Shown here in pieces: positions 9,860 to 57,500 of a DNA stretch of 64,000 bases. The notes below the pieces were generated by a model. That model saw nothing but the letters and a program-made list of their open reading frames with translations, was not told where the DNA came from and made no database searches. Each line of letters opens with the position of its first letter. The stretch's first letter is position 1. Position numbers and translations under genes: made by a program. This DNA is from Mobula hypostoma (taxonomy: Eukaryota). Location of the stretch: positions 96,598,001 through 96,662,000 of the forward strand of contig NC_086097.1 of the NCBI RefSeq assembly GCF_963921235.1. The letters are read 5' to 3'.

Positions 9860-11840
9860 TAATTACAAAGATATGAGGAAGGAACTTGGGAGGAGATGTT
9901 CTCAGGGAACAGCAGGAATATAGAGGTTCTTTATGAAGAACTTGCATGGGGTTCTGGATAGATTTGTCCCATTGAGGCAGGGAAAGGGTGGTAGGAAGGA
10001 TGAAAGGATAGTAGGATGGTAGGAAAGGAAGGTACCTTTAGTCAAGAGGAAGAAGGAAGCACATTTAGGGTATAGAAAGCAAATAACAGACTGGGGTCTT
10101 GAGAGTTATAAGGTAGCCAAAAAGGAGCTTAGGAAGGGACATAGGAAGGCTAGAAGGGGTCATGAGAAGGTCTTGATGAGTAAGATTAAGGGAAACTCTG
10201 AAGTATTTTACATGTGCGTGAAAAAATCAGGAGGATGACTAGTGTGAGGGTTGGGATAAAAAGAGGAGACATGCCTGGAGCTGGAGGAGGTAGGGGAGGT
10301 CCTTAATGAATACTTTGCTTAGTGTTCACCAGTGAGAGGAACCTTGACAAATGTGAGGTCAGCTTAGAAAGGCTAATATGCTGAAGCATTTTCAGGTTAA
10401 GGAAGAGACAGTGTTAGAGCTTTTGAAAGATGTTAGGATAGAAATTTCTCTGGGGCCAGGTTACTATGGGAAGTGAGGAAAGAGATTACTGGAGCGTTGA
10501 CAGTGATCTTTATGCCATCACTAGTCACAGGGCCAGCACCTGAGGATTGGAGGTTGGCAAATGTTGTAGCTTTGTTCAAAAAGGATGATAGGGATAATCC
10601 TGGGAATTATAGGCCAGTGAGTTTTACATCAGCAGTGGGCAAACTATCAGAGAGGATTCTCAGAGACAGGATTTACAAACATTTGGAAAAGCATCGTCTG
10701 ATTTGGGATAATCACCATGGTTTTGTGAGGGATATGTCATGCTTCACGAACCTCATAGACTTTTTTGAGGAAGCGTCAGTACAATTTGATGAAGGTAGAA
10801 TGGTGTAACAAGTCGTTTGTCAAGTTTACCCATAGAAGGCTCATCCAGAACGTCATGAGGCATGGGCTCCATGGAAACTTGGTTGCATGGATTCAGAACT
10901 GGCTTGCCCACAGAAGGAAAAGGGTAGTAGTTAATGGAGTGTATTCTGCCAGGAGTTTAGTGACTACTGGTGTTCTGCACTGATCTGTTCTGGAACCCCT
11001 GCTTTTTGTGATTTTTATAAATCACTTACATGTGGAATTTGAAAGATGGGCCAGTAGGGTTGTCTTTGGTTACAAAAGGGCATAGGCAGGATGCAGAGCT
11101 CGGCTGATATGTTCAAAAGCATGAAGCGATACACTTCAGAAGGTCGAACTTGAAGGAAGAGTACATGGTTAATGGCAGGTTTCTTAGCTGTGTGGAGGAA
11201 CAGAGGGATCTTGAGGTCCATGTGCATAAATCCTCAATGTTGCTGTGTAAGTTGATAGGCTGCTTAAGAAGGTGTAAGGTGTGTTGACCTTCATTAATCA
11301 GGAGATTGAGTTTGAGAATCACGAGGTAATGTTGCTGCTCTTAGAGCACAGCATATCATGTTCAATTCTCATTGCCTCCATTAAAGAAAGCATGTGGAAA
11401 CTTTAGAGAGAATGCAGAGTTCATCTACCAGGATGCTGACTGGATTAAAGAATGTGTCTTATAGGAGAGATTGAATGAGCTAAGGAGGATGAGAGGTGAC
11501 TTGATAGATTTGTATAAGATTGTAAAAGGCATAGATAAGGTGCCAGGGCAGCAATGGGTACGGCCAGGGGACGTTTTTTAAGCTCAGTGGAAGAAAATTT
11601 AGGAGAGATGTCAGAGGTATGTTTTTTACAGAGAGTGGTGGGTGCCTGGAATGCACTGCCTGGGGTCATGGCTGAGGCAAATATGTTACGGACATTTAAG
11701 AGTCTTTTAGACAGGCATATGAAAAATGAAGGGTTATGGGCTGTGTCAGAGGGAGGGGTGAGATTGATTGTGGAGTAGATTTATATAGGTTGGTGCAACA
11801 TTGTGAGTCTATACTGTGCTGAACTGCTGCATGTTCTATG
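9860..11840 (+). mobile_element. Degraded CR1 LINE ORF2
   Basis: ORFs 10473-10808 (PEDWRLANVVALFKK..PGNYRPVS, HGF), 10765-10983 (WIQNWL..R), 11554-11778 (QRVVGAWNALP); ttctatg tail. Confidence 0.85.
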
Positions 11841-13624: not shown

Positions 13625-14672
13625 AGGGTGGACATTGCTTTGTGGATCCAGAACTGGCTTGCCCACAGAAGGCAAAGAGTGGTTGTAGACGCTTATAGAT
13701 GGAACCCGTACTCCTTGTGATTTTTATAAATGACCTGTATGAGGAAGTGGAGGGATAGGTTAGTAAGTTTGCTGATGACACAAAGGTTGGAGGTGTTGTG
13801 GATAGTGTGGATGGCTGTCAGAGGTTACAGCGGGACATCGTTAGGATGCAAAACTGGGCTGAGAAGTGGCAGGTGGAGTTCAACCCGGATAAGTGTGAGG
13901 TGGTTCATTTTGGCAGGTCAAATATGATGGCAGAATATAACATTAATGGCAAGACTCTTGGCAGTGTGGAGGATCGGAGGGATCTTGGGGTCCGAATCCA
14001 TAGAACACTCAAAGCAACTGCGCAGGTTGACACTGTGGTTAAGAAGGCATATGGTGTATTGGCCTTCATCAATCGTGGAACTGAATTTAGGAGCAGAGAG
14101 GTAATGTTGCAGCTATGTAGGACCCTGGTCAGACACCACTTGGAGTACTGTGCTCAATTCTGGTTGCCTCACTACAGGAAGGACGTGGAAGCCATAGAAA
14201 GGGTGCAGAGGAGATTTACAAGGATGCTGCCTGGACTGGGGAGCATGCCTTATGAGAATAGATTGAGTGAACTCAGCCTTTTCTCCTTGGAGTGACATAG
14301 GATGAGAGCTGACCTGATAGAGGTGTATAAGATGATGAGAGCACTGATCGTGTGGATAGTCAGAGGCTTTTTCCCAGGGCTGAAATGGTTACCACAAGAG
14401 GACACAGGTTTAAGGTGCTGGGGAGTAGGTACAGAGGAGATGTGAGGGTTAAGTTTTTTACACAGAGAGTGGTGAGTGAGTGGAATGGGCTGCCGGCAAT
14501 GGTGGTGGAGGCAGATATGATGGGGTCTTTTAAGAGACTCCTGGATAGGTACATGGAGCTTAGAAAAATAGAGGGCTATGGGTAAGCCTAGTAATTTCTA
14601 AGGTAGGGACATGTTTGGCACAACTTTGTGGGCCAAAGGGCCTGTGTTGTGCTGAAGGTTTTCTATGTTTCT
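13625..14672 (+). mobile_element. CR1 LINE 3' portion; 14071 onward is duplicated at 21343
   Basis: FADDTK RT motif; ORF 13798-14295 (WAEKWQVEFNPDKC, LEYCAQFW); FFTQRVV; ttctatgtttcta tail. Confidence 0.9.
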
Positions 14673-15934
14673 AAGATGGGAGACAGGGGATGGCAGAAGC
14701 TTGCTCAATATTTAAAATGATGCACTCTGAATGAACTAATCCCTGAGGCTTAAGAAGGCATCGGTGGTACCATACTTGGAGTATTGTGAGCAGTATTGGG
14801 CCCCATATGTAAGAAAAGATGTCCTGGCCTCGGAGAGGGTTCAGAAGTTGTTCACGGGAATGAAATGTTTAAGGTGTGAGAAGCAATTGATGGGCTCTGG
14901 GGCTGCACTCGCTGGAGTTTAGAAGAATGAGGGATATCTTAATGAAACCTATCCAATACTGAAAGGCCTCCATAGAGTGGATGTGGAGAATATTTTCCCT
15001 ATAGTGGGAGAGTCTAGGACCAGAGGGCATGGCCTCAGAATAGAGGGACGTCTATTTAGAACAGAGATGAAGAGGAATTTCTTTAGCCAGAGGGTGATGA
15101 ATCTGTGGAGGTCATTGCCACAGACTGTTGTGGAGGCCAAGTCATTGGATACATTTAAAGTGGAGGTCATTTAGCAAGTGTATCAAAAGTTATGGGGAGA
15201 AGACAGGAAAATGGGATTGGGAGGGATAATAAATCAGCCATAATGGAATGACAGAGCAGACTCAGTAGCCTGTCTTATGGGTTTATAGGACTGCTTGCCT
15301 GGAAGTAAGATCTTTTAATGCTCTATACCTTATAAATTCAATGAAAGATGAAATTAGTTATTGACGTGTTTACTGCCTTGTTCTTTTGATTGAATGTAAA
15401 TGAACAAAATCAGCACAGACATATAGTGGTCTGCCTCATACTATGTGTTTGATGATTACATCCTCCAAATTTGTATTTTCATTGTAACATTCAAGATGGT
15501 TATCTACACCTTCAAATTCTTTGTAGTTTCTAACTTGTAGTGAAATTGTTTCATTTTCACTCCCAGCTGTTTCTGACATCTCCAAGCCTGGATGCTTGAA
15601 ACCACAGTGAGCAAAACAGTTCTAACTTGTCTTGCTGCTTATTTCTCGCCAACTATCAGTGACAAAAATCACTGCTTTTTGAACACAAACACTTGCAACT
15701 AATGCTATTTGAAAGCTGTTCACTCTAAGCACAGTGTAGTGTCTAGCGACCATGCATGTACACATGACTGACCCTAGTTAGAAACTGTTCGGCAACAGTC
15801 TCTTGTCCCAATTAAGTGGCATAGGGTCCCAAGTAAACTAAAGGCATCCAGGCTATTTTCTCAACTGTTTTTTGTTCTTTAAGAGTTGTCCCAAATAGGC
15901 AGCTGTCCCGACTAACTGATGGCCTAGTTAACCA
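14071..15934 (+). repeat. Left copy of a 1864-bp direct repeat flanking the L1
   Basis: Colinear with 21343-23206 at a constant offset of 7272. Four substitutions spotted by eye (14513, 15046, 15365, 15666). Confidence 0.97.
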
Positions 15935-15945
15935 TAATTAATGTA

Positions 15946-16485
15946 ATGAAGAAGAAACTTGACTTTTTGACTTTTAAAAACTCTGACTTGGAATCTAGAA
16001 TGCGACGGCAGAATTTACGAATGATTGGCGTGAGGGAAGCTGTTGAAGCCAACAACCCCATGAAATATTTCTCTCAACTTTTAAAAGATGCATTCCCTAC
16101 TGTATTTCCTGACCAACCACCGCTACTGGATCGTGTTCACAGAATCCCATCATACTCGTCTAGGTCAGATAGACCTAGGCATGTTATTTTACGTTTTCAT
16201 TATTTTCAAGACAAGGAGAGACTGTTTCGATTCGCTCGATCTAAAAGTTTCATTGATTTTTCGGATCTTAAGTTCCGATTCGTGGAAGATTTCAGTAAAC
16301 CAATCTGGGACCAACGGGTCCGTTACAGATCCGTGATGTCGGAATTCTATAAGATGGATTTAAGACCAGCGCTGCTGTACCCTGCACGTCTAAGGATTCG
16401 CATGTTAGATGGAGCCCTTCATTTTTTTGATTCTCCATCGGATGCCCAGAGTTATCTGGATCAACTTTCATCTTCAACATCTTAA
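15946..16485 (+). CDS. L1 ORF1p, C-terminal half (N-terminally truncated)
   Basis: DLESRMRRQNLRMIGVRE (ORF1p DLENRSRRNNLRI-type motif), LDRVHR, PRHVILRFH, LLYPARLRI. Confidence 0.9.
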   Translation: MKKKLDFLTFKNSDLESRMRRQNLRMIGVREAVEANNPMKYFSQLLKDAFPTVFPDQPPLLDRVHRIPSYSSRSDRPRHVILRFHYFQDKERLFRFARSKSFIDFSDLKFRFVEDFSKPIWDQRVRYRSVMSEFYKMDLRPALLYPARLRIRMLDGALHFFDSPSDAQSYLDQLSSSTS

Positions 16486-17207
16486 TTGCCTTTTTTTAAT
16501 TATCTCCGTTGATCGGAGGCTGTGAATTGGTTGGTTTTAACTTTTCTGTGCCCTATTTGGGCAGAAAAGTTTACTTTTGATTTCTTAATATGGCTGCTAA
16601 ACTTTCTTTTTAACTGCGTCATTTCTTTCTTTTCCCAGGGGATTCTGGGTGGTTACTTCCCTTTTGTCATCTTACGTATTTCCTGTGCGGCCTTAAATTT
16701 TGTAGTTTTTTTTAAAATTTTATTCTGTTTTGCTTTTTATAATCACTTTATGTTAATAATCCTATTTTTTTTGTTGCTGTGTCTATTCATGAGTTTGAGG
16801 TTTATTGTGGTTTTTTTTTTAATATATATTTTCCGGCTTTTGTTCTGTTCTGTGTGTATTTTAATTGAGCTAACTTTTTTTTACTTATTTTTTTACTGTT
16901 TTACAATTAGCTGATCCTTTTCATATTTATACCTTTTTTTTAGGGAGCGTATACCGGAAGTCATGGGGGTAGTTTTAGCGCTTGCTTCTTTCTGGCGGGT
17001 CTGCTTTAGATTTTGCCTTGGGGTCTTGGGGTGGGGGGTGGTGGGAGGGGCTTCACGTTTTAGTTTGTTTCTCTTTGGGCTATATACATTATTGAAGTAC
17101 TGGTTGCGTCCTTTTCCCCGGTATCTTTTGTATGTTCTGTTTCCTCTCCGGGTTTGTGGGTCGCGCCTATTGTCAATCCTCCTTGTTGTGGGTTGACTTT
17201 AGGATTT

Positions 17208-20200
17208 ATGGAGTCTATTATTAATTTTGTCTCCTGGAATACTAATGGTCTTAATCATCCTATTAAAAGGAAAAAAGTTTTTAAAGTGTTCCGGAGACTT
17301 AAAGCACAAATTTTATTTTTACAAGAGACCCATGTACGGAGGGGGGACAGACTACGTTTTTTCAAATTCTGGAAGGGCCAACAATTTCATTCGAACTCCA
17401 ATGCTAAGATTCGAGGCGTCTCTATTTTTATAGATTCCTCAGTTACTTTTATACAACAGGATATTATCTCTGATCCGAATGGTAGATTTTTATTGGTTAG
17501 TGGTTTACTATTTAATAAAAAAGTAGTTTTGGTTAATGTTTATGCTCCTAATATGGATTGTCCGGAATTTTATAAATCATTGTTTGATCAGTTTCCGAAT
17601 TTGAACGAGTTTTCATTGATTTGGGGCGGAGATCTTAATACCTGTTTATCTCCAGCTTTGGACTGTTCGGCTCCTTTACGGACTTTACCTAATAAATCTG
17701 CAAATTTGATTAATTTTTTCCTTTCTGATTCTGGGTCGACGGACATTTGGCGTTTTCTGCATCCTCAGGAAAAAGATTTTTCCTTCTTTTCACATGTTCA
17801 TCATTCCTATTCAAGAATTGATTATTTTTTCATTGATTCTCGTCTCATTCCTTCAGTGATTAAATGTGATTATGATTCTATAACCATTTCGGATCATGCT
17901 CCACTTAAGCTTTCTATTAAAATTATGGCCAATATACCAAACAATAGACAATGGCGTTTTAATTCGCTGTTGCTTCAGGACTCGGACTTTGTTAATTTTA
18001 TGAATGAACAGATTGAGCTTTTTTTTACAATTAACCATACAGAAGATATTTCGGTTAACACTCTTTGGGACACTTTTAAAGCCTATATTCGGGGTCAGAT
18101 TATTTCGTATTCCGTTGCTTTGAGGAAGAAACAGAAGCAGGAGGAGATGGCAATTGTGGACAAGATTAAAGAAATTGATAAGAAATATGTTATGGCTCCT
18201 TCTGAGGAGCTATACAAACAAAGAACTGAACTTCAAATGGAACACAGTTTACTACTCTCGTCCTCGATTGTAAACCAATTAAAGAAAACAAGAAGTGATT
18301 TTTATGTTCACAGTGATAAAATTGGCAAGCTGCTGGCTAATCAATTGAAATCTAATTATGTTAAATCTCAAATCAATCAGATTTATAACCAAAATGATCG
18401 ATTGATATTGGATCATGTGGGGATTAATCAAACCTTTTGTGATTTTTATTCTTCTTTATATCAATCAGAGTCTCCTCGAGATTCTAAATATATGAATGAT
18501 TTTTTAGATAAGTTAGACTTCCCTCAGATTTCACAGGATATGTCTTCTTTATTAGATACTTCCATTACAATGGATGAGATTAAGAATGTTATTTTTTCTA
18601 TGAATCTGGGGAAAGCTCCTGGCCCTGATGGGTTTACCGTTGAATTTTATAAATGTTTTGCTTCTTTATTGATTCCTTGGCTCTATAAGGTTTTTGAGGC
18701 TTCTTTGAAACTTGGTAAACTTCCGGAATCTTTTAATAGAGCATCAATTTCTTTAATACTAAAGAAGGATAAAGACCCTGCTCAATGTGCATCTTATAGA
18801 CCAATATCTTTATTAAATGTTGATTCTAAAGTTTTTTCTAAGTTATTAGCAAATAGACTAGAAAAAGTACTTCCTTCTATTAATTCGGAAGACCAAACGG
18901 GTTTTATTAAAGGTCGTTACTCTTTTTATAATATTCGTACATTGTTAAATATCGTTTATACTCCCTCACAAAATGTTCCTGAGTGTGTTATTTCTTTAGA
19001 TGCCGAGAAAGCTTTTGATAGAGTAGAATGGCCTTATTTATTTAAGGTGCTTGAAATGTTTAATTTTAGCTTGAAATTTATATCCTGGATTAAACTGTTA
19101 TATCACTCCCCTGTAGCCTCGGTTCATACTAACTCTTTAAACTCACCTTTTTTTCCTCTCTTTCGTGGTACTCGACAAGGCTGTCCTCTTAGTCCCCTAT
19201 TATTTGATATTGCATTAGAACCTCTTGCAATTGCTATTCGAGAATCTTCAAATATTACTGGGATAACTCGGGGATTAAAGTCCCATAAATTATCACTCTA
19301 TGCTGATGATTTACTTTTATATATTTCTAATCCTGAGAGATCCATTCCTGCTGTTTTAGAGTTATTAGCACAATTTGGTCTTTTCTCAGGTTATAAATTA
19401 AATCTTAGTAAGAGTGAACTTTTTCCGATTAATAAACATCTTCCCTTATATTATAAATTTCCATTTAAATTGATTAATAATTACTTTTCATATCTTGGGA
19501 TTAAAATTACTTGTAAACATAAAGATTTATTTAAGACTAACTTTTTACCATTAATAGACCATATTACTCAACTTTCATCTAAATGGTTTCCCTTATATTT
19601 AACTTTGATTGGTCGTATTAATGCAGTTAAGATGTTTTTTTTGCCAAAATTTTTATATGTGTTTCAGGCATTACCAATTTTCGTTCCTAAATCTTTTTTT
19701 GATAAAGTTGACTCTAAAATTTCTTCATTTATTTGGCAGAATAAGAATCCGAGACTGGGTAAAATACATTTACAGAAAGCTAAGAGAGATGGAGGTTTAG
19801 CATTACCTAACTTTAGATTTTATTATTGGGCTATTAATATTCGACATATGAAATTTTGGTTACTTGACCGGGACATACTATCTATTCCTAAATGGGTAGC
19901 ATTGGAATTACAATCTGTTCAGGGTTATACACTTGGTTCTATTTTAGGTTCCTCTCTTCCTTTTGATTCGAAACGCCTTAAGCAGGTCTCTAACCCGATA
20001 GTTAAATATGCTTTGCGCATTTGGTTTCAATTCAGAAAATTTTTTGATCTTAATCAATTCGGGTTAGCGATTCCTATTTTAGGTAACATATTTTTTCCTC
20101 CCTCTTTTACGGATCGCGCTTTTCAAACTTGGAAGACTAAGGGTATTTTACGGTTTTTGGATTTATTTTTAGATGGTTCCCTTATGTCTTTTGAACAATT

Positions 20201-20984
20201 ATCTAATAAATATAACTTATCAAGAATACATTTTTTTAGATATTTACAAGTTAGAAATTTCCTAAGTACTATACTTTCTTCCTTTCCAATGCTTCCTCCT
20301 ATATATATTTTAGATTCGATAATTAACCTTAATCCATGTCAGAAAGGTGCATCGGCTATGATTTATAATATTATTATGAAACTTAGGAAAGCTCCATTTG
20401 ATAAGATTAGGGTAGATTGGGAACAGGAATTGGGGCTTACCATTTCTGTGGATGATTGGGGGCAGATTTTACAATTAGTTAATACTTCCTCTATTTGTGC
20501 TAAACATTCCCTAATTCAATTTAAAGTGGTTCATAGAGCACTTATGTCCAAAGATAAGTTAGCGCGTTTTTACTCGCATATTAATCCTTTCTGTGATAGA
20601 TGTTCGGGGCAGATAGCCTCTTTAACTCATATGTTTTGGTCTTGCCCTACTTTGGAAACTTTTTGGAGAGATATTTTTAATATTATTTCTAAGGTATTAA
20701 ATATAGATATCTCTCCTCACCCTATTACTGCTATCTTTGGACTACCTAAAATTTCTAGTAATCTTTCCCCTTCAGCCCGTAGAATGATTGCATTTCTTAC
20801 TTTAATGGCGAAAAGATGTATTTTACAACATTGGAAAGAGCTTAATGCTCCAACTACCTTTTTTTGGTTTTCTCAGACGATTTTATGTTTGAATTTGGAG
20901 AAAATTAGAAGTAACCTTCATGATTCTTCATTTAAATTTGAACAGATTTGGGGACCTTTTATTCGATATTTTCATTTAATGTAA
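17208..20984 (+). CDS. L1 ORF2p (APE endonuclease, reverse transcriptase, C-terminal Cys-His domain), uninterrupted
   Basis: Endonuclease motifs SWNTNGL, LQETH, GGDLN, SRIDY, SDH; RT motifs KAPGPDG, YRPISLLN, LDAEKAFDRV, QGCPLSP, YADD; CDRC...HMFWSC. Likely ATG at 17208. Confidence 0.97.
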   Translation: MESIINFVSWNTNGLNHPIKRKKVFKVFRRLKAQILFLQETHVRRGDRLRFFKFWKGQQFHSNSNAKIRGVSIFIDSSVTFIQQDIISDPNGRFLLVSGLLFNKKVVLVNVYAPNMDCPEFYKSLFDQFPNLNEFSLIWGGDLNTCLSPALDCSAPLRTLPNKSANLINFFLSDSGSTDIWRFLHPQEKDFSFFSHVHHSYSRIDYFFIDSRLIPSVIKCDYDSITISDHAPLKLSIKIMANIPNNRQWRFNSLLLQDSDFVNFMNEQIELFFTINHTEDISVNTLWDTFKAYIRGQIISYSVALRKKQKQEEMAIVDKIKEIDKKYVMAPSEELYKQRTELQMEHSLLLSSSIVNQLKKTRSDFYVHSDKIGKLLANQLKSNYVKSQINQIYNQNDRLILDHVGINQTFCDFYSSLYQSESPRDSKYMNDFLDKLDFPQISQDMSSLLDTSITMDEIKNVIFSMNLGKAPGPDGFTVEFYKCFASLLIPWLYKVFEASLKLGKLPESFNRASISLILKKDKDPAQCASYRPISLLNVDSKVFSKLLANRLEKVLPSINSEDQTGFIKGRYSFYNIRTLLNIVYTPSQNVPECVISLDAEKAFDRVEWPYLFKVLEMFNFSLKFISWIKLLYHSPVASVHTNSLNSPFFPLFRGTRQGCPLSPLLFDIALEPLAIAIRESSNITGITRGLKSHKLSLYADDLLLYISNPERSIPAVLELLAQFGLFSGYKLNLSKSELFPINKHLPLYYKFPFKLINNYFSYLGIKITCKHKDLFKTNFLPLIDHITQLSSKWFPLYLTLIGRINAVKMFFLPKFLYVFQALPIFVPKSFFDKVDSKISSFIWQNKNPRLGKIHLQKAKRDGGLALPNFRFYYWAINIRHMKFWLLDRDILSIPKWVALELQSVQGYTLGSILGSSLPFDSKRLKQVSNPIVKYALRIWFQFRKFFDLNQFGLAIPILGNIFFPPSFTDRAFQTWKTKGILRFLDLFLDGSLMSFEQLSNKYNLSRIHFFRYLQVRNFLSTILSSFPMLPPIYILDSIINLNPCQKGASAMIYNIIMKLRKAPFDKIRVDWEQELGLTISVDDWGQILQLVNTSSICAKHSLIQFKVVHRALMSKDKLARFYSHINPFCDRCSGQIASLTHMFWSCPTLETFWRDIFNIISKVLNIDISPHPITAIFGLPKISSNLSPSARRMIAFLTLMAKRCILQHWKELNAPTTFFWFSQTILCLNLEKIRSNLHDSSFKFEQIWGPFIRYFHLM

Positions 20985-21342
20985 TATTTACCCTTCTTGT
21001 TTTTTTTTCACTGTTTTAATGGAGGTCGGGATTGAGGACGTGATTTTAAGTTTAACTCTGTTTGGTTTCAAGTTAGCCCATTGCTTTGCCTTGCTTTTAG
21101 TTAGCTGCACGGTGGGTTTTTTTTGGGGGTTTTTTTTTTCTTTTTTTCCATTGATATATATAGAATTTAGTATACTATTATGTTATCTTGGTTTCTTATG
21201 CTTAAATTACATTGTTTGTAGTATTTTCTTTTTGGTATTGTTATCTTTTGGAATTTTATTATACTTTAACATTGTATTAATGTTTATATGGCTTACCTTT
21301 TTTGTATACTTACTCAATAAAAAGATTTAAAAAGAAAGAAAG

Positions 21343-23206
21343 AATCGTGGAACTGAATTTAGGAGCAGAGAGGTAATGTTGCAGCTATGTAGGACCCTGG
21401 TCAGACACCACTTGGAGTACTGTGCTCAATTCTGGTTGCCTCACTACAGGAAGGACGTGGAAGCCATAGAAAGGGTGCAGAGGAGATTTACAAGGATGCT
21501 GCCTGGACTGGGGAGCATGCCTTATGAGAATAGATTGAGTGAACTCAGCCTTTTCTCCTTGGAGTGACATAGGATGAGAGCTGACCTGATAGAGGTGTAT
21601 AAGATGATGAGAGCACTGATCGTGTGGATAGTCAGAGGCTTTTTCCCAGGGCTGAAATGGTTACCACAAGAGGACACAGGTTTAAGGTGCTGGGGAGTAG
21701 GTACAGAGGAGATGTGAGGGTTAAGTTTTTTACACAGAGAGTGGTGAGTGAGTGGAATGGGCTGCCGGCAATGGTGGTGGAGGCGGATATGATGGGGTCT
21801 TTTAAGAGACTCCTGGATAGGTACATGGAGCTTAGAAAAATAGAGGGCTATGGGTAAGCCTAGTAATTTCTAAGGTAGGGACATGTTTGGCACAACTTTG
21901 TGGGCCAAAGGGCCTGTGTTGTGCTGAAGGTTTTCTATGTTTCTAAGATGGGAGACAGGGGATGGCAGAAGCTTGCTCAATATTTAAAATGATGCACTCT
22001 GAATGAACTAATCCCTGAGGCTTAAGAAGGCATCGGTGGTACCATACTTGGAGTATTGTGAGCAGTATTGGGCCCCATATGTAAGAAAAGATGTCCTGGC
22101 CTCGGAGAGGGTTCAGAAGTTGTTCACGGGAATGAAATGTTTAAGGTGTGAGAAGCAATTGATGGGCTCTGGGGCTGCACTCGCTGGAGTTTAGAAGAAT
22201 GAGGGATATCTTAATGAAACCTATCCAATACTGAAAGGCCTCCATAGAGTGGATGTGGAGAATATTTTCCCTATAGTGGGAGAGTCTAGGACCAGAGGGC
22301 ATGGCCTCAGAATAGAGAGACGTCTATTTAGAACAGAGATGAAGAGGAATTTCTTTAGCCAGAGGGTGATGAATCTGTGGAGGTCATTGCCACAGACTGT
22401 TGTGGAGGCCAAGTCATTGGATACATTTAAAGTGGAGGTCATTTAGCAAGTGTATCAAAAGTTATGGGGAGAAGACAGGAAAATGGGATTGGGAGGGATA
22501 ATAAATCAGCCATAATGGAATGACAGAGCAGACTCAGTAGCCTGTCTTATGGGTTTATAGGACTGCTTGCCTGGAAGTAAGATCTTTTAATGCTCTATAC
22601 CTTATAAATTCAATGAAAGATGAAATTAGTTATTGATGTGTTTACTGCCTTGTTCTTTTGATTGAATGTAAATGAACAAAATCAGCACAGACATATAGTG
22701 GTCTGCCTCATACTATGTGTTTGATGATTACATCCTCCAAATTTGTATTTTCATTGTAACATTCAAGATGGTTATCTACACCTTCAAATTCTTTGTAGTT
22801 TCTAACTTGTAGTGAAATTGTTTCATTTTCACTCCCAGCTGTTTCTGACATCTCCAAGCCTGGATGCTTGAAACCACAGTGAGCAAAACAGTTCTAACTT
22901 GTCTTGCTGCTTATTTCTCGCCAACTATCAGTGACAAGAATCACTGCTTTTTGAACACAAACACTTGCAACTAATGCTATTTGAAAGCTGTTCACTCTAA
23001 GCACAGTGTAGTGTCTAGCGACCATGCATGTACACATGACTGACCCTAGTTAGAAACTGTTCGGCAACAGTCTCTTGTCCCAATTAAGTGGCATAGGGTC
23101 CCAAGTAAACTAAAGGCATCCAGGCTATTTTCTCAACTGTTTTTTGTTCTTTAAGAGTTGTCCCAAATAGGCAGCTGTCCCGACTAACTGATGGCCTAGT
23201 TAACCA
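21343..23206 (+). repeat. Right copy of the 1864-bp direct repeat (two CR1 fragments plus part of a DNA-transposon remnant)
   Basis: See left copy. This copy continues into a TIR-like end ttaaccagaatccgctgta (to ~23218) that is cut off in the left copy. Confidence 0.97.
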
Positions 23207-23749
23207 GAATCCGCTGTATAAAAGCTGGACTTGCCTTCAATTACATAAAATAGATTCTTCCTGCTCTTCTCCCTTTTTTGGGTCCTCCACATTTTGATAT
23301 ATTGATACACCAAGTGCTATCCAGCAGTTGTTGGTGTATCAATATATCAAAATGTGGAGGACCCACCTATATCTGGATGCATTCACAGTCTGCAGTCTGC
23401 AGCTATTCTAGCAGAATCCGACTTTCACAGTTTGGCTTGAATTCCACGTACTTAGTGGATCCCGATCAAGTTCTTCAGACCCACTTCACATGCAACCACT
23501 TCAAACATATTACCTACCTGGCTTTTCTATCTGCCCTTTCCCTGCCAACTGCCTTTCTGGTAATGACCATCCCCAAGCCCTGCAATGCAGAAAAATTATC
23601 CTTCAGCTGATTTTTCTGCCATTTACTTTTGTATCCTTCATCCTTGATATATTTACCCTGTGTGATCTTCCCTTAACATCATGGTCTGAATCGACATTCC
23701 CTCCCCTAAGGCAACTTGAAAATTTGTGGTAAGTGTGGTATAAAAGGCA

Positions 23750-24430
23750 ATCTGAAAATTTCCAGTTTGCAAAGATTCAGTATGTCATCTAAAACCCTGA
23801 CAAACTTCTGTATGTCTGTGGTGGAGGGTATACTGACTGGTTGCATCACGGCCTACTTTGGAAACTCCAATGCCCTTGATGGAATATCCCAGAAAAAGAA
23901 GTGGATACAGCCCAGCCCATTGTGGGTAAAGCCTTCCCCATATCACTGAGTACAACTACATGGAGTGCTGTTGCAGGAAAGCAGCATCCATCATCAAGGA
24001 CCCCCACCATCCAAGCCATGCTCTCTTCTCATTGCTGCCTTCAGAAAGAAGGTACAGGAGCTGCACCACCAGGTTCAGGAACAGTTATTACCCCTCTACC
24101 ATTAGGCTCCAGAATCAGGGGAGATAACTTCACTTGCCCATCACTGAATTGTTCCCATTGAATTGGACTCGCTTCCAAGGACTCGTCATCTCTTGGTCTC
24201 TATTTATTACTTTTCTATTTATTATTATTGTTTTATCTTTCTTTTTGTATTTGCAGTTTATTTTGTTTTGTTTGCACATTGGTTGTTGTCCACCCTTTTG
24301 GGTGCAGTGTTTTGTTGATTCTGTTGTGTTTTTTGTTTGTACTTACTGTGATTGCCCACAAGAAAATGGATCTCAGTGTTGTACATGGTGACATATATGC
24401 ACTTTGATAATAAATTTACTTTAAACTTTG
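23750..24430 (+). mobile_element. Rex1/Babar-type LINE 3' fragment
   Basis: KTLTNFC..VVEGILTGCITAY motif shared with 3154-4206; gataataaatttactttaaactttga tail. Confidence 0.75.
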
Positions 24431-24539
24431 AAAATTAGTTGAACTGGGGCAACAGTATCTAAAAACAGTCTTTGAAATTAGAAGATAATTTATACAAAAC
24501 TGGAGCAAAAATATAAATGGTGTAATTCTGAAACATCAA

Positions 24540-25372
24540 TAGGTTTCAATAGGTACATTTAATGTCAGAGAAATATATACAATATACACCCTGAAATTCT
24601 TTTTTCTCGCAAACATCCATGGCAACAGAGAAGTGTCCCAAAGAATGAATGACAGTTAAAACATTAGAACCCCAAAGCCCTCCCGTTCCCCCCTCCCACA
24701 CACAAGCAGCAGCAAGGCAATGATCCCACCCCCCACCCCCACCAGCAAATAAAGCATCAGCACCCTCCAATGGCACGCAAGTGTGCAGCAAAGCATCGAT
24801 AAAGACATAGACTTGCAGTACCCCAAAGACTACTCATTCACCTGGTATTCAACAAAGCACAGGCTCTCTCTCTCCCTAATAAGGGAAAAAGAGGTGTCTC
24901 CATTTCACAGCGAGAGGGGAGACATAACAAACAACTTGCTGATTTACCATGTTAAAAGTCTATTGTGTTGCTTTTTCCGAGCTCTGTACCTGGAGAGTTG
25001 GCACCAAAAAGGCGCAGCTCTCTGGGCACACAACCCTCGGCAGCTAACCTGCTGCCCCCCGATGTTCCATATTTTCCTGTGACACTTCAGTCAGGGGCTC
25101 CAGCCTAGTCAGCATGTCTTCAGAGCCATAAAAATCCAGAATCCCTGAAGGTGTGCTCACTTTCTAGGCCGTGTCCTTGGGATATCAAAAAACAGCTGGT
25201 AATGAGGCCCCGAGAGCGGGTTCCATTTCCACAAAGAACCGAAGTCAGAGTGTAACTGCAGGTCAGAGTATTCAAAAGAAGCTTGAAAAGGGGAAAAAAA
25301 GAGATATCAAAGATAGAAATAGAGCTGTTCCCGAAGATGCGAGTAAAGGAGACACCATTTAGCGCCATCTTG
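24540..25372 (-). mobile_element. Second copy of the 7657-8400 repeat family
   Basis: Reverse-complement similarity across both ends and the interior (shared DTDLQYPKDY / DIDLQYPKDY pseudo-ORFs). Confidence 0.7.
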
Positions 25373-25899
25373 ATTTTGCTTTGCCCCTCTACGACAAAAA
25401 TATTGAAAGTATTCCAGACAAGACCCTGGAAACGGATCACACAGCACTGGTAGTGAAAGAAACTGAGTCGCTATTTCTTCATTATAACACATGCTTGTTC
25501 CTTCATTATAATACATGCTTGCTAAGAGAGTGGGATGATGGCGGAATGGCTACGATAGGATAACAAGATTGTCCCAGCATCACTGGAGGGTTGCGGGTGG
25601 GCATAGGCAGCTGGCAACAGACAATGAAGTTGAATGGGGAAGAAGTATCCAGATCACAGGGGTGGGATGTTGGGGGGGGGCGCAGTTTAGGGTTTACCTG
25701 AAAAATCAAGTTTAACCAATTAAGCCACAATAGCTGTACTATACCTAGAAAGAGGAAGGGCTGTTATTCCTCGAACCAATACTAGGTATCATTGGAAGAT
25801 TGTAGGAGGCTGAAGAGAGGTCAAAGTGAGAAGGAGATGGAGATTTGAAGAGATAGGACTGTGGAAATTCAGGGTATCCCTTGCAAACTGTATGGAACT

Positions 25900-32676: not shown

Positions 32677-34035
32677 AGACCATAAGATATAGGAGCAGAA
32701 TTAGGCCATTTGGAGGCACATAACAAGATAGGCCAAAGCCAGCATGGTTTCCTGAAAGGATAATCCTTCCTGACAAACCTGCTGCAATTCTTTGAGGAAA
32801 TTACAAGCAGGGTAGACAAAGGAGATGTAGTAGATGTGGTGTACTTGGATTTTCAGAAGGCCTTCGACAAGGTGCCGCACATGAGGCTGTTTAGCAAGAT
32901 AAGAGCCTATGGAATTACAGGGAAGTTACTAGCATGTGTGGAGCATTGGCTGGTTGGCAGAAAACAGAGAGTGGGAATAAAGGGATCCTATTCTGGCTGG
33001 TTGCCAGTTACCAGTGGAGTTCCACGGGGGTCAGATGTTGGGACCACTACTTTTTATGATGTATGTCAATGATTTGGACTATGGGATTAATGGATTTGTG
33101 GCTAAATTTGTTGATGATATAAAGATAGGTGGAGGAGCGGGTAGTGTTGAGGAAACAGAGAGCCTGCAGAGAGACTTAGTTTAGGGGAATGGGCAAAGAA
33201 GTGGTAAATGAAATACAATGCTGGAAAGTGTACAGTTTTGCACTTTGGTGGAAGAAATAAACAGGCAGACTATTATTTAGATGGGGAGAGAATTCAAAAT
33301 GCAGAGATGCAAAGGGACTTGGGAGACCTTGTGCAGGATACCCCAATGGTTAGCCTCCAGGTTGAGTCGGTGGTGCAGAAAGCAAACACAATGTTGGCAT
33401 TCATTTCTAGAAGTATAGAATATAAGAGCAGAGATGTGATGTTGAGGCTCGATAAGGCACTCATGAGACCACACTTCGAGTATTGTGTGCAGGTTTGGGG
33501 TCGGGTCCTTATTTTGGAAAGGATATACTGACATTGGAGAGGGTTCAGAGAAGATTCACGAGAATGATTTCAGGAATGAAAGGCTTACCGTATGAGGAAT
33601 ATCTGGCAGCTCTTGGGCTGTAATCCATGGAGTTCAGGAGAAGGAGGGGGGATCTCATAGAAACATTCCGAATGTTAAAAGGCCTGAACAGATTAGATAT
33701 GGCATAGTTATTTCCCGTGGTAGGGGATTCTAGGACAAGAAGGCACGACTTCAGGATTGAAGGACGTCCTTTTAGAACTGAGATGTGGAGAAATTACTTT
33801 AGTCAGAGGGTAGTAAATCTGTGGAACTTGTTACCACGAGCGGCTGTGGAGGCCAAGTCATTGGGTGTATTTAAGGCAGAGATAGATAGGTTCTTGATTA
33901 GCCAGGGCATCAAAGGGTATGGGGTGAACACAGGGGAGTGGGGCTGACTGGAAGAATTAGATCAGCACATGATTAAATGGTGGAGCAGACTCAATGGGCT
34001 GAATGGCCAACTTCTGCTCCTATATCTTATGGTCT
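32677..34035 (+). mobile_element. CR1 LINE 3' part, preceded by an inverted copy of its own 3' terminus
   Basis: VYLDFQKAFDKVPH, SGVPRGS, FVDD, YFSQRVVNLWN. 32677-32710 is the near reverse complement of 34002-34035. Confidence 0.88.
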
Positions 34036-44768: not shown

Positions 44769-45038
44769 CAAGATATTAAGGGGAATAGATAGAATGGATA
44801 GGTATACACGATATTATGAAGTATAGATAGAGTGGACAGCCAGAGCCTCTTCCCCAGGGCACCACTGCTCAATACAAAAGGACATGGCTTTAAGGTAAGG
44901 GGTGGGAAGTTCAAGGGGGATATTAGAGGAAGGTGTTTTACTCAGAGAGTGGTTGGTGCGTGGAGTGCACTGCCTGAGTCAGCGGTGGAGGCAGATACAC
45001 TAGTGAAATTTAAGAGACTACTAGACAGGTATATGGAG

Positions 45039-45862
45039 TGTGACGAGAATACACATAGATAAGATGTTAGCTGTCCTGTGTGATCAGCAGTGGGTCTGCC
45101 ACCTGTCTTCAAGAGAGAGGTAAGGGACACAATGAAACAGCACCTGGAAATGTGTAGAGAGCTGTCTGGAGCGGCTCCCCCTTTGAACCCTGAACTGTTT
45201 GAAGTGATGGACAGGTGATACCCCAGCAGGGGGATAAAAAGGGGCCGGTTCGCTAAGGCAGGACACACACGCCACCCGAGGTAACGAGACTCTGGAAGCG
45301 GTGCGCCTCTCACGAGTCGGTGGGAAGTACCAGACAACGCACAGGGTGGAAAGGTACGATCAGCGGGAACCCGGTGTGTGTCCGCCCTTGCCTGGGTGCC
45401 GGGTTCACTGCAGAGGATCGACCGCATCTGGAGGAGGGGTCACAGTCGGTGACCTCAGGTGACATCACCAAGGACCCGCCCAAAAGTTGCTTGTGAGCAA
45501 TTATCGTCGGTCTGTGAGTGAAGCCGTTCTGAATGATCAGTTGTTCCTGTTCTATCTCTCTCTTCCCCCACGTTGTCCATCCATGGCAACGATTACTGCG
45601 AACTGAACTAAATTGGACTGAACTCTTGGGTCACTTTGAAATTTGATCATTTACCCCTAGACAATGATAGAGCTTGATTGATGCTGTTATCTTAATTCTG
45701 TGCACATGTGTGTTTATCATTGCTGAACTGTTGCATCTATTATCCTTTCGATTACTGTGTTGCTTGTTTCTTTAATAAAACTTTCTTAGTTCTAGTAATC
45801 CAGACTCCAACTGAGTGATCCATTTCTGCTGGTTTGGCAACCCAGTTACGGGGTACGTAACA
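45039..45862 (+). repeat. 5' LTR (824 bp)
   Basis: tgtgacgaga...tacgtaaca; highly similar to 49043-49869; internal AATAAA. Confidence 0.96.
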
Positions 45863-45866
45863 TAAG

Positions 45867-45886
45867 TGGGGTTCTTGTCCGCGATT
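45867..45886 (+). promoter_or_regulatory. Primer-binding site, tRNA-Pro-like (diverged)
   Basis: tggggttcttgtccgcgatt versus the canonical tRNA-Pro PBS TGGGGGCTCGTCCGGGATT, 4 nt after the 5' LTR. Confidence 0.65.
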
Positions 45887-45923
45887 TTGAATGCCCGAAA
45901 GAAAGAAAAGACAAACAGCAGAA

Positions 45924-47150
45924 ATGGAGGCTGAGGAATTTATAAAGGCGCCGACCTTGGAGGCATTAGAGGATGCCAGGAAATCGGAATAGATAGCTGT
46001 GGCCAAACGGTTGAATCTTGCTAAGGTGAAGTCGACAATGAGGAGAGAGGAGATACACAGAGCTATTGTAGAGCACTATGTATCTAAAGGTGTGTTTCCC
46101 CAAGGTGAGCTGGGGGTGGTGTCTATTGAAAAACCTGCTGGAGACGCGGTACAGGTACAGCTTGAAAAACTGAGACTCGAGCACGAGTTCCGGGTACGGC
46201 AGTTAGAACACGAAGAGAAGGAGAGAGAGTTAGAAAGGCAAGAAAGAGAAAGACAGTTGGAGAGAGAAGAGAAAGAGAGGGACAGACAGTTGGAGAGAGA
46301 GGAGAAACAGAGGGAAAGGGAATTTGAGCTGGAGAAGTTAAAGATAAGGGCCGAGCAGGGGCTCGTGCCGAACCAAGGTGGAGGGTTCCGGGCGACCCAG
46401 GAGGTTAGGCTGGTTCCCCCATCTGACGATACCGACGTGGATCGGTACTTTCTCCACTTCGAAAAAGTGGCTATAAGTCAGGAATGGCCGAGGGATAAGT
46501 GGGCTGTGTTACTTCAGAGTGTACTGAAAGGGAAAGCCCAAGAAGCTTACTCCGCTTTGTCCGCGGAAGATGCCCAGAGGTATGAGGTGGTGAAAGAGGC
46601 CATCCTCAGGATTTATGAGTTGGTCCTGGAGGCATACCGGCAGAGGTTCCGGAATGCGAGGAAGCAGTGGGACCGCACGTATTTGGAGTTTGCCCGTGAG
46701 AAGCAGACAGATTGTGAGCGTTGGTGCGCCTCGAAGGGGGTAGAGGGGGATTATGACAGACTGCTACAGCTGATCCTGATTGAGCAGTTTAAGGGTTGTG
46801 TCCCTGAGGGTATGAGACCCTACCTCGATGAGAAAGAGGCAGCCACGTTAGCCGCAACTGCTAAGTTAGCGGATGAGTATGCGTTGACGCATAAAATGAA
46901 GTTTGCCCCGAGTAAAGGCTATCAGAAGGGTAGTCAGGACGGCGGGGAGAGTCCGCCGGAAAAGTCAGAAAGTAAGCCGGGGACGAGTGAAAAGGATAAG
47001 GTAGACCGGGAGCAGTCTGGTAGGAAGTCTCCTGGGGTCATCTGTTATAATTGTGGGAAAGCCGGACACTTTGCGTCCAGGTGCTTTGCCCCAAAGAAGG
47101 AGACGGGAAAAGGAAGAACAGCGATTTTGATGGCTGTATCGATCTGTTAA
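45924..47150 (+). pseudogene. Gag with coiled coil, SCAN-like capsid domain and CCHC knuckle; in-frame TAG at 45990
   Basis: EAYRQRFR...LLQLILIEQF (SCAN-like); CYNCGKAGHFASRC. ATG 45924 is in frame with ORF 45999-47150. Confidence 0.85.
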
Positions 47151-47219
47151 GCGAACCGCTAGGGAAGGACAGGTCTGGAAAAAGTCCAGGAAGGGCGCGA
47201 GAGGTTTATCTCGGCCGGA

Positions 47220-47678
47220 TTGGTGTCAGTGAAGGAGGGGTTAAAACCAGTTCCAGTGCGGATCTGGAGAGACACGGGAACGTGTCAGTCACTAATACTG
47301 AAGAGTGTATTAGAGTTTAGCTCAGAGACCCAGACCGGGAAGGTAGAGGTCAAAGGTGTTGGGGAAGGGACAGAGTCAGTCCCTTTGCACCAGATACACC
47401 TACAAAGCAACCTGGTCTCTGGACTAGTCACGATCGGGGTGAGGTCCGAGTTAACGATGAAAGACGTGGAAGTCTTGCTCGGAAATGACCTCGCGGGAGG
47501 AATTGTGTTCCCCGCCGTGAGGCTGACAAGTCAGCCTGCCAGCATGGAGGCCCCGCCCGTGGACTCGCAGGTTTATCCCGTTTGCGCAGTAACTCGGCGG
47601 ATGGCGAGAAAAGCTGCAGAGGCCGACATAAAGTTAGCTGAAACGTTTCTGCCCACCCTGTACGGGGGGGGGAAATAG
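47220..47678 (+). pseudogene. Retropepsin-type aspartic protease
   Basis: RDTG catalytic motif and LLGNDL motif. Confidence 0.8.
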
Positions 47679-47758
47679 AAAGTGAAAAGACGGAACGAAA
47701 TGAAACAAGAGGCAGTGAGGGAGCTGGGACAGATGTAGCAGTAGCCAGGAAAGAATTT

Positions 47759-48910
47759 GTGCAGACGCAGGAGCGAGACGAGGGGCTGATGATTTCGGCA
47801 GAGACAGCTCTCTCTGACACAGCTTTAACAAGGGAACTAGTAGGCTATTGTGTGGAGGACGAATTGCTACGGGAAAAAGGGAAATCAAGTACAGTACCCG
47901 CAGATGAGGAGTGGGGGGTGGTGCAAAAGAGTTATGGGGATGAGGTTCTTAACATGGCCCACGAGGTACCCCCCGGTGGACATTTTGCGGTGCTGGAGGA
48001 AACAGTTGGTGGAATCATGAAAGAGGTTTACTGGCTGCCCAGGGGGAAGAATGTTATTGATCATGACCGATGCGAACTGAGACGGTCACCGGCTTTTGAT
48101 ACGCTAACAAACCTAGTCGGTGTTAGCATGGAAATCAATGAAGCTCGGGGCCCCCTGATAAGAGGAAGAAACCATTTTGAAAAGATTAGTATGGGATCGA
48201 TCAGATGGGAGAAGGCTATTGTTTTGGCCAGGTCTACTGATAAGGTCTCTCCCTTAATTCCCGAACAAAGCGAATCTTTAGAAGAAGTAATTAAACGACT
48301 CGCACCCGTGTGTTTGATTGTCCCGAGGCAATGCAAAGAACTGGGACGTTGGGTGATGTCTGTTACAATAGGCCAGCCTAGCAAACAACATCCATATATA
48401 ATGAGTAATTCAGTGACTAAAGGGCTGATGAACACAGAGGTGTGTATTGGCAATTTAATACGGCTGTCTGAAGCCAGCTTGATAGTGAACCTTGAAAAAA
48501 ATGAATTCGGCCACACGAGGGTCACTTACCTGGGAATTGTGGTGACACAGGGGCAGCTGGCAGCGATGCAAACTACAGTGCAGGCTATCGCTGACCTCCC
48601 AACATCGACAGACAAGAGGGCCCTCAGAAGGCTCTTGGAGATGGTGGGGTACTGTAGGAAGTTTTGCAATAACTCTGCGGTCAATATCCCTCCCCCCTCC
48701 TACTAAGCCCTTGCGAGAGAAAACTGAGTCGGAATGGGACGACCCTTGTTATTGTGGTCCGGGACAAAACCAAATGAGAGGTTACATTGATCGAAATTCA
48801 TCAGTGTTTTTGGCCACTATGAAGTTTGCTGAGTTAGAGCCTGGTCTAAGGGATTATTAATAACACATGTAAAAGGAACAGAAAATGCGATGACTGTCTG
48901 TCAAGGTGTT
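47759..48910 (+). pseudogene. Collapsed pol: integrase Zn-binding start, RT fragments, RNase H tail
   Basis: AHEVPPGGHF..VYW (integrase N-terminus), then KQHPY, NLEKNEF..VTYLG, MVGYCRKF (RT), then HVKGTEN (RNase H end). No DDE core and no YxDD. Confidence 0.75.
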
Positions 48911-49042
48911 GACAACTTCAAACTCGCTGTGTTAGCCAAATAGCTGATAAAGATGTATATTTGTGCGTGTATCAAATAATGTATTCATGTTTGTAATTTT
49001 TACCTCCCGGTAAAAATCCTTAAAAGGGGCGGAGGGGGGAAG

Positions 49043-49869
49043 TGTGACGAGAATACACATAGATAAGATGTTAGCTGTCCTGTGTGATCAGCAGTGGGTC
49101 TGCCACCTGTCTTCAAGAGAGAGATAAGGGACACAATGAAACAGCACCTGGGGATGTGTAGAGAGCTGTCTGGAGCGGCTCCCCCTTTGAACCCTGAACT
49201 GTTTGAAGTGATGGACAGGCGATACCCCAGCAGGGGGATAAAAAGGGACAGGTTCGCTAAGGCAGGACACACACGCCACCCGAGGTAACGAGACCCTGGA
49301 AGCGGTGCGCCTCTCACGAGTCAGTGGGAGTACCGGACAACGCACAGGGTGGAAAGGTACGATCAGCGGGAACCCGGTGTGTGTCCGCCCTTGCCTGGGT
49401 GCCGGGTTCACTGCAGAGGATCGACCGCATCTGGAGGAGGGGTCACAGTCGGTGACCTCAGGTGACATCACCAAGGACCTGCCCAAAAGTTGCTTGCGAG
49501 CAATCTCGCCGGTCTGTGAGTGAAGCCGTTTCTGAATGATCAGTCGTTCCCGTTCTCTCTCTCTCTCTCCCCCCACGTTGTCCATCGCCATGGCAACGAT
49601 TACTGCGAACTGAACTAAATTGGACTGAACTCTTGGGTCACTTTGAAATTTGGTCATTTACCCCTAGACAACGATAGAGCTTGATTGATGCTGTTATCTT
49701 AATTCTGTGCACATGTGTGTTTATCATTGCTGAACTGTTGCATCTATTATCCTTTCGATTACTGTGTTGCTTGTTTCTTTAATAAAACTTTCTTAGTTCT
49801 AGTAATCCAGACTCCAACTGAGTGATCCATTTCTGCTGGTTTGGCAACCCAGTTACGGGGTACGTAACA
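49043..49869 (+). repeat. 3' LTR (827 bp)
   Basis: Follows the PPT aaaaggggcggaggggggaag; ends tacgtaaca. Confidence 0.96.
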
Positions 49870-50934
49870 GGAGGAATTTAAGGTGGGGGTTATATGGGAG
49901 GCAGGGTTTGAGAGTCGGCACAACACTGTGGGCCGAAGGGCCTGTACTGTGCTGTACTATTCTATGTTCTATAAACTACTGCTGTAACTTGCCTCGTACG
50001 CGGTTCCCCACTACGTCAGAGAGGTGTGGAGGGAAATCGTCCGCTAACTGGAGAAACTCCGGATATAACGTACCTTTCCCTTTTTATCGTATCATTTTAG
50101 GAGCATCATTGTTCTCTCTAAGCTGCGCCACATAGTAACTGGAAAGCTCCAATGCACGTGGCTTTTGTTGCTGTGCAGCTGGGATTTTCTTTTATATAAT
50201 GTTGATATACTTTTCAAATGATGCGACTATAAATTTGAAATCTATGTTAATATAATTGTGAAGTACCTCGTAATTAATTAGGTGTTTGTGGTCATAATTC
50301 ATATTTTCCAAATGATAAATGTAGCACAAACTTTTCTTCGAAAAATTTTAGAGCTTCATTGCATGAACATTGTTAGTGTTTTAAGTTACAACATTGTTAC
50401 AAAATTGTAACAATAAACACAGAATACAAGTCAGTGGCTCATTGTTAATAAATGCCAGCCCACTAAGTTTAAAAATATGACGATTTTCCTTATACTGTAT
50501 TTCATTATACCCTTTATTAATAAATAAAATCAAAAGTATGTGTTTTTTCAATTTCCATTCTAAATATTCATATTATACACATCACAAAAGAGAACTTTTA
50601 AAATGTTGCACAATTTTCAGCCCGTGTAAAAATTTTCTGCTGAGAGCAATGGTTGGTTGGTCCGTGCAGTTGTTAAAGAAAAATTAGAGGGAATGTTGAA
50701 GAGTATAGAGCATCAAAAACATAGGGGCTAACCTGCTAAATTACTTATGCAATTCTATATACTTGGGCTAAACCATAGCTCCAGTCAGTGCTCAGAAATG
50801 ACTTGACAATGCAGTAAAACTATGCTAATAATTTGTAAACAACAGGAATTCTGCAGATGCTGGAAATTCAAGCAACACACATCAAAGTTGCTGGTGAACG
50901 CAGCAGGCCAGGCAGCATCTCTAGGAAGAGGTGC

Positions 50935-50970
50935 AGTCGACATTTCAGGCCGAGACCCTTCGTCAGGACT
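50935..50970 (-). ncRNA. Minimal type-I hammerhead ribozyme motif in the Penelope terminal repeat
   Basis: Minus strand reads agtc-CTGACGA-agg gtctcgg cct-GAAA-t-GTC^gact: stem I agtc/gact, stem II agg/cct, loop-less stem III (ATGT, against ACGT in the 57.4 kb copy). Confidence 0.75.
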
Positions 50971-57278: not shown

Positions 57279-57500
57279 CAACAACAGGAATTCTGCAGAT
57301 GCTGGAAATTCAAGCAACACACATCAAAGTTGCTGGTGAATGCAGCAGGCCAGGCAGCATCTCTAGGAAGAGGTACAGTCGACGTTTCAGGCCGAGACCG
57401 TCCTGACGAAGGGTCTCGGCCTGAAACGTTGACTGTACCTCTTCCTAGAGATGCTGCCTGGCCTGCTGCGTTCACCAGCAACTTTGATGTGTGTTGCTTG
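57279..57500. mobile_element. Palindromic Penelope terminal-repeat mini-insertion (young copy)
   Basis: 89-bp inverted arms at 57311-57399 and 57412-57500 around a 12-nt loop; 13-bp TSD ggttcatgagatg at 57266-57278 and 57501-57513; near-identical to 50838-50970. Confidence 0.93.
57400..57433 (+). ncRNA. Minimal type-I hammerhead ribozyme motif
   Basis: gtc-CTGACGA-agg gtctcgg cct-GAAA-c-GTT^gac, with palindromic ACGT in place of stem III. Confidence 0.75.

Follow-up and report, generated by a model that had tools for sequence, protein, structure and literature searches.

The stretch of DNA analysed here (the window: 64,000 nt of Mobula hypostoma, contig NC_086097.1 of assembly GCF_963921235.1, positions 96,598,001 to 96,662,000 of the forward strand) contains an L1-clade long interspersed element (LINE) that is flanked by two direct copies of a 1,864-bp block of host DNA. 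This arrangement is probably a giant target-site duplication (TSD). Contigs were compared with positions 15895-25500 of the window, a region that begins with the last 40 bases of the left copy and continues through the L1 and the right copy into the right flank. They come from 4 of the 23 listed runs, two from one sample of organism A (X1 and X2) and two from organism B (X5 and X6). The contig evidence comprises eight pieces per run among those listed, with 334,886 further pieces outside the listing. In each of the two organism A runs, and in neither organism B run, one record fits the compared region at two positions; it might be a junction contig, but it lies outside the listing and was left out of the evidence. 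The runs of organisms C-H, with shares of at most 0.13 that possibly reflect repeats only, stand outside the contig comparison.

The duplicated block

The left copy of the block is at 14071..15934 and the right copy at 21343..23206, both on the + strand; the right copy is attested by sequence comparison and by contig depth. The two direct repeats of 1,864 bp each align with 0 indels and with four differences, all of which are transitions (left/right: 14513A/21785G, 15046G/22318A, 15365C/22637T, 15666A/22938G). Two of these four are CpG differences (14513A/21785G and 15365C/22637T). The gap between the copies is exactly 5,408 bp, all of which is L1. The original prediction had described the copies, their four transitions with two at CpG, and the exact fit of the L1 into the gap, and sequence comparison confirmed each of these points. 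Repeat identity stops abruptly at both edges, so that both boundaries are exact. Concerning the direction of the changes, the G at 15046 is the ancestral letter in three of four distant paralogues. The T at 22637 and the A at 14513 are likely CpG decays, yet A is also found at 14513 in two distant paralogues.

The block contains, in this order, the 3' part of an older LINE fragment (which we take to be of CR1 type), a second CR1 fragment (approximately 14744-15272), low-copy DNA and part of a high-copy repeat. No exon or gene was recognised within the 1,864 bp, and an Rfam scan of the whole window gave 0 matches.

The older CR1-type fragment (13643..14678, + strand, ends approximate) is cut by the left boundary of the duplication at 14070/14071. 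A 178-aa piece of this fragment at the boundary has 0 matches in Pfam. The open CR1 frame (13759-14295) runs across the boundary, and two paralogues in the window (11141-11740 and 33358-33487) span it in the alignment. In addition, seven contigs of run X2 have loose ends that extend leftwards beyond 21343, and there their letters are those of the left flank. The frame, the two paralogues and the loose ends thus agree with the original prediction that removal of the L1 and of one copy leaves an uninterrupted CR1 on the left.

At the right boundary, the high-copy repeat continues for a few bases beyond the block (23207..23218, no strand assigned) and finishes in CTG, followed by TA. The boundary (23206/23207) is crossed by one contig in each of the four runs (23151-23308 in organism A, 23151-23792 in organism B). 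No poly(A) follows 23206. The original prediction saw here an uninterrupted end resembling a terminal inverted repeat (TIR). That the sequence is uninterrupted and ancestral is supported by the contigs of organisms A and B. The TIR identity fares less well: the end presumably resembles that of a DNA transposon, and no partner TIR was found within the window.

Of the four junctions, the two outer ones are ancestral and the two with the L1 are new. This is the geometry of a TSD, and it excludes 3' transduction, as the original prediction had argued from the tail abutting the right copy and the missing poly(A). An L1 3' transduction would end in a second poly(A) followed by a short TSD; the sequence after 23206 has no poly(A), and the junction in question is common to organism B.

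The L1 element

The L1 (15935..21342, + strand) is a 5'-truncated element of 5,408 bp that belongs to a young subfamily expanded in organism A. A Transposase_22-type ORF1 is followed by an ORF2 with APE, reverse transcriptase (RT) and zinc-binding regions, then by a polyadenylation signal and an A-rich tail, and this organisation places the element in the L1 clade.

What is left of ORF1 is a fragment of 182 aa (15937..16485, + strand; PF02994 Transposase_22, E 2e-9). A word search with ORF1 gave 0 matches among 43 candidates, and a full HMMER search later provided relatives. The four best of these have 262-272 aa and match from their own residues 89-99 onwards, which indicates that about 85-90 N-terminal residues are missing, together with the 5' untranslated region (UTR) and promoter. 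The element is truncated inside ORF1, and from its sequence it would not be autonomous: it has neither the 5' UTR promoter nor the complete ORF1 of an autonomous full-length L1. The original prediction overlooked this 5' truncation.

ORF2 is uninterrupted (17208..20984, + strand, 1,258 aa) and codes for an APE endonuclease, an RT (YADD at 698) and a C-terminal zinc-binding region (Pfam domains PF03372, PF00078 and PF13966). Among the 120 of 519 matches that were listed, the named relatives are LINE-1 proteins from teleosts and bichir with 45-47% identity, and the best unnamed one has 65%. Patterns from ORF2 hit 94 stretches in metagenome contigs, of which 0 were confirmed, and an exact 25-base L1 pattern had 0 matches in such contigs.

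The 3' end (21316..21342, + strand) has its AATAAA at 21316-21321, and the tail, which reads A5-G-AAAG-AAAG, occupies 21329-21342. This 14-base A/AAAG tail directly abuts the right block copy. As the target begins with AA, tail and target may share 2 bases. At the 5' end, the first 9-12 bases of the L1 do not occur elsewhere in the window, which gives no indication of locally templated filler. Neither the listed contigs nor the metagenome pattern searches yielded DNA of this family from upstream of 15935.

Reality and zygosity of the duplication

Depth ratios were calculated for contigs lying wholly inside the block, relative to the mean of the four listed flank contigs of the same run (X1 and X2); one X1 piece from the L1 was left out. 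In X1, the flank contigs have depths of 13.6-16.1 and the two block contigs have 34.2 and 29.9. In X2, the flank contigs have 9.6-9.9 and the three block contigs have 19.6, 17.7 and 18.1. The ratio is thus 1.81-2.36 in all five listed contigs wholly inside the block. A join of two haplotypes predicts a ratio of 1 and about 2 is observed, so the block is truly duplicated. The original prediction had named read depth as a check, with half depth speaking against it; the block contigs have about twice the flank depth.

The contig that crosses 23206 has a depth of 17.0 in X1 and of 11.4 in X2. A two-to-one step at the boundary predicts 17.5 and 11.8 for the two runs, a 1.5-to-1 step (heterozygous duplication) predicts 16.0 and 10.8, and the lack of a step predicts 14.5 and 9.8. 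The observed values are nearest to the two-to-one step, and the duplication is apparently homozygous in the sampled animal (or the region is hemizygous). At position 22637, the X1 contig has C, the letter of the left copy, while the X2 contig has T, the letter of the right copy.

Age of the insertion

In the flank, run X5 of organism B differs from the window at 21 of 1,341 positions (1.57%; based on five pieces that lie in the flank or extend into it, with three L1 pieces excluded). The two block copies diverge by 0.21% (95% range 0.06-0.55%), and the ratio of this value to the divergence between organisms A and B is 0.14 (0.04-0.35). Within the L1, at least two of the 15 listed substitution sites are private to the copy in the window (16421 and 17664), and both are CpG decays. 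At six further sites (17435, 19484, 19870, 19874, 19883 and 20302), the organism B contigs have another letter at 98-100%, while the family in organism A partly shares the letter of the window copy. The L1 copy therefore postdates the split of the two organisms.

The family has a summed contig depth in organism A that is thousands of times the flank depth; such summed depths are not copy numbers and served as rough bounds only. Scaled L1 depth was examined at four sites: at three of them it is about 9-200 times lower in organism B than in organism A, and at the remaining one the factor is 6-7. A strong expansion of the subfamily in organism A apparently followed the split, with the same reservation that depths do not count copies.

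Four changes in the 2 x 1,864 bp of the block and two private changes in the 5,408 bp of the L1 are compatible with a single age (P 0.19; 0.15 when considered by CpG class). Epaulette shark has a mutation rate of 7e-10 per generation (PMC10587355). Under this rate the copies would be 0.4-3.9 million generations old, a value that ignores CpG hypermutability and any starting differences. As the rate is also borrowed from another species, the value says only that the event is probably not recent. The original prediction held that the pair of copies dates the insertion. It does so loosely (four differences, 0.06-0.55%), and the dating fails if the copies stem from two haplotypes.

Origin of the duplication

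We consider it probable that one germline L1 insertion, the second-strand step of which took place 1.9 kb away, gave rise to a giant TSD. Host direct repeats abut both ends of the insert and have about twice the depth of the flank. In such an event, the ORF2 protein would nick the bottom strand at GATT/GA inside the old CR1, and reverse transcription would be primed at this nick from the A/AAAG tail. Copying of the cDNA would stop inside ORF1. The upstream host end that is joined to the cDNA would lie 1,864 bp downstream, rather than about 15 bp. This end could be provided by a distant top-strand nick or by break-induced copying off the sister chromatid or the homologue at a replication fork. 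The copies would then gain their four transitions and the allele would rise to its apparently homozygous state. We infer such a distant second-strand cut or fork repair from the geometry; either would agree with published models (PMC5223499; bioRxiv 10.1101/2024.12.14.628481). Regarding the TSD interpretation in the original prediction, the geometry and the reality of the duplication stand, the mechanism has the standing just described, and an unequal crossover, which competes with it, had been overlooked.

Comparable products have been reported. In cells deficient in nucleotide excision repair (NER), L1 TSDs of 1-6.8 kb are described (maximum 6,765 bp in the tables, median 1,495 bp), and complemented cells had TSDs of up to 1.6 kb (PMC5223499). 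According to the same report, TSDs of more than 100 bp accompany 57-91% of the inserts in NER-deficient lines and at most 10% in HeLa. Servant et al. 2017 proposed that a distal, unrelated nick is used and that the product is later lost via recombination between the copies (PMC5223499). The zebrafish LINE ZfL2-2 generated one TSD of 1,228 bp among 25 inserts in wild-type chicken DT40 cells (PMC2666801). At L1 junctions, tandem duplications of 1-10 kb were interpreted as large TSDs that arise via break-induced replication (10.1101/2024.12.14.628481). A class of long TSDs is defined in PMC4245944, and extreme TSDs are said to accompany 5'-truncated inserts (PMC2912911).

Several points speak against a giant TSD. 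The nick site GATT/GA has only two T and is weak when compared to TTTT/AA, which is a mammalian motif and perhaps not that of this family. Nearly all inherited L1 TSDs are shorter than 25-30 bp in the genome surveys covered by PMC4805530, although one such survey was itself limited to TSDs of at most 30 bp (PMC2912911). Neither L1 junction is crossed by any listed contig, so that the order copy-L1-copy is left to the assembly. Pruning of short paths that lead from a junction into a very deep repeat would account for such uncrossed junctions. The organism A sample may have the same source as the assembly, in which case the X1 and X2 contigs are not population evidence. The empty allele was never seen whole. 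No listed locus-specific contig of organism B reaches more than 56 bp into the block, and organism B has no cover at 22637, which in itself proves nothing. Finally, the block copies lean, non-significantly, to more divergence than the age of the L1 predicts, as two haplotypes would.

Such an excess (P about 0.15) would also fit an unequal crossover of the Bar type, which we regard as unlikely while rating it above the other rivals. Two L1s in the same orientation, each with a short TSD, would have been inserted 1,864 bp apart on different haplotypes, and a crossover inside them would have produced a single hybrid L1, flanked on both sides by the DNA that had lain between the two insertion sites. 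The resulting geometry is identical: a tandem duplication with one element placed precisely at its junction. There is precedent in Drosophila, where Bar is a duplication of 203.5 kb with one roo between the copies and px1 is a duplication of 1.5 kb around DM412 (PMC13322080). The abundance of the L1 family in organism A and a TT|AA core located 5 bp inside the right end of the block are also in its favour. The scenario requires, however, that two insertions less than 2 kb apart co-segregated, that an ectopic crossover took place and that its product spread. A rough estimate, in which depths serve as an upper bound, suggests that at most about 2% of the L1s would have such a neighbour. Among the listed rows from the one sample of organism A, there is no joint or loose end of a single-site allele, and no sign of a hybrid L1 is seen, though contigs cannot phase the L1. 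The weak endonuclease motif and the short tail, which shares at most 2 bases with the target, could instead point to an event that started without L1: a break or a fork collapse made the tandem duplication, and an L1 cDNA patched the novel junction by endonuclease-independent insertion. Tailless or non-canonical inserts go along with long duplications in the NER-deficient cells of PMC5223499. This L1 has, however, a complete 3' end, with the polyadenylation signal and a tail directly on a target that starts with AA, as predicted by target-primed reverse transcription, and we consider a patched junction quite improbable.

That no listed contig spans the L1 junctions would also be explained by an assembly artefact, with two haplotypes, or wrongly joined sequence, placed in tandem on either side of the L1. 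A difference of 0.2% is of the order of allelic variation. Such a join predicts equal depth, though, while all five listed block contigs have 1.8-2.4 times the flank depth and the step fits the boundary at 23206; an artefact is thus very improbable. Least credible of all is that the L1 was added bluntly to the exact junction of an older tandem duplication, or that the block is a 3' transduction. Neither has anything specific in its favour. The former needs a strike on one exact base without a TSD of its own. Against the latter, 23206 is not followed by poly(A), contigs of organism B run across the right boundary, which is ancestral, and a donor block would not be located immediately 5' of the same truncated L1.

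Other elements in the window

Just to the right of the duplication (70 bp), a near-perfect hairpin of 87 nt is found at 23279-23365 (-63.7 kcal/mol, z -15). It is of low copy number, is spanned by an organism B contig with two changes, and has 0 matches in Rfam.

At 60175-61042, an insert of about 570 bp lies between direct repeats of about 148-150 bp, which have six differences, several of them at CpG. The insert has TGTT...AACA ends and imperfect TIRs and resembles a solo long terminal repeat (LTR). The right copy of about 148 bp continues into an element that is similar to a miniature inverted-repeat transposable element (MITE) and ends near 61448; the left end of this MITE-like element is thus duplicated. 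The region looks like a second, older insertion with a long duplication in the window and is a candidate for this class.

A Gypsy-type LTR retroelement (45036-49869) has LTRs of about 830 bp which are 97% alike and an ordinary 4-bp TSD (GGAG). It codes for a gag-like frame with SCAN and zinc-knuckle, its internal region is only about 3.2 kb long, and it interrupts an older LINE fragment. A fold-back at 57280-57500 has arms at 57311-57399 and 57412-57500 (98%) and matches 50838-50969, the end of an RT-bearing element at about 50.8-53.9 kb which we take to be Penelope-like.

Significance and comparison with known systems

Kilobase L1 TSDs are already known; the inherited and persistent setting is apparently the unusual part. 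Up to now, they have been regarded as something that HeLa cells, repair-deficient cells or cancer cells produce. They are also predicted to be short-lived, since recombination between the copies can remove the L1 (PMC5223499). We found no report of an inherited kilobase L1 TSD in the open-licence literature, supplements aside, which is weak evidence of absence. A case that is supported by depth, is apparently homozygous and carries four differences between its copies suggests passage through the germline and persistence. At this locus, nature provides a test case for second-strand models, for break-induced-replication models and for the loss of an L1 without a scar. Its direct biological effect is probably nil, because this is one locus in repeat-rich DNA and no gene was recognised in the block.

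It is tempting to speculate that, in this lineage, the insertion of retroelements repeatedly leads to kilobase TSDs in the germline rather than in cell culture alone, and that these form a long-tailed class which is missed by TSD finders with an upper limit of about 30 bp. We think it doubtful that this holds. If it did, the block and the 148-bp case found 37 kb away would be members of the class. Inherited tandem duplications of kilobase size would then routinely arise from L1 in a slowly mutating fish, and so would precise excisions of L1 when the copies recombine.

With the L1 TSDs from HeLa and NER-deficient cells (PMC5223499), the locus shares the tail at the target-primed junction and a host repeat of 1-7 kb, a range that includes 1,864 bp. 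The L1s in that study are human elements that were engineered and assayed in cell culture, often in repair-deficient lines, whereas the L1 described here is endogenous and of fish type, has diverged copies and is apparently present on both chromosomes. The duplications in cancer genomes and L1-expressing clones (10.1101/2024.12.14.628481) are similar in size (1-10 kb) and in having a single L1 at the duplication junction, but they are somatic, human and recent, and are not inherited. ZfL2-2 in DT40 (PMC2666801) is likewise a fish LINE with a kilobase TSD, obtained in repair-proficient cells; it differs by belonging to the L2 clade and by having been observed in a heterologous cell assay. Drosophila Bar and px1 (PMC13322080) are inherited tandem duplications with one transposable element exactly at the junction, and px1, with 1.5 kb, is close in size. 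Their elements are, however, LTR elements, and Bar is explained by an unequal crossover that involved two copies of roo, the mechanism that competes with a giant TSD at the present locus. TSDs of 111 and 250 bp around HERV-K (HML-2) (PMC5488345) are also inherited and unusually long for a retroelement, but they result from integrase-based insertion and are 7-17 times shorter than the duplication described here.

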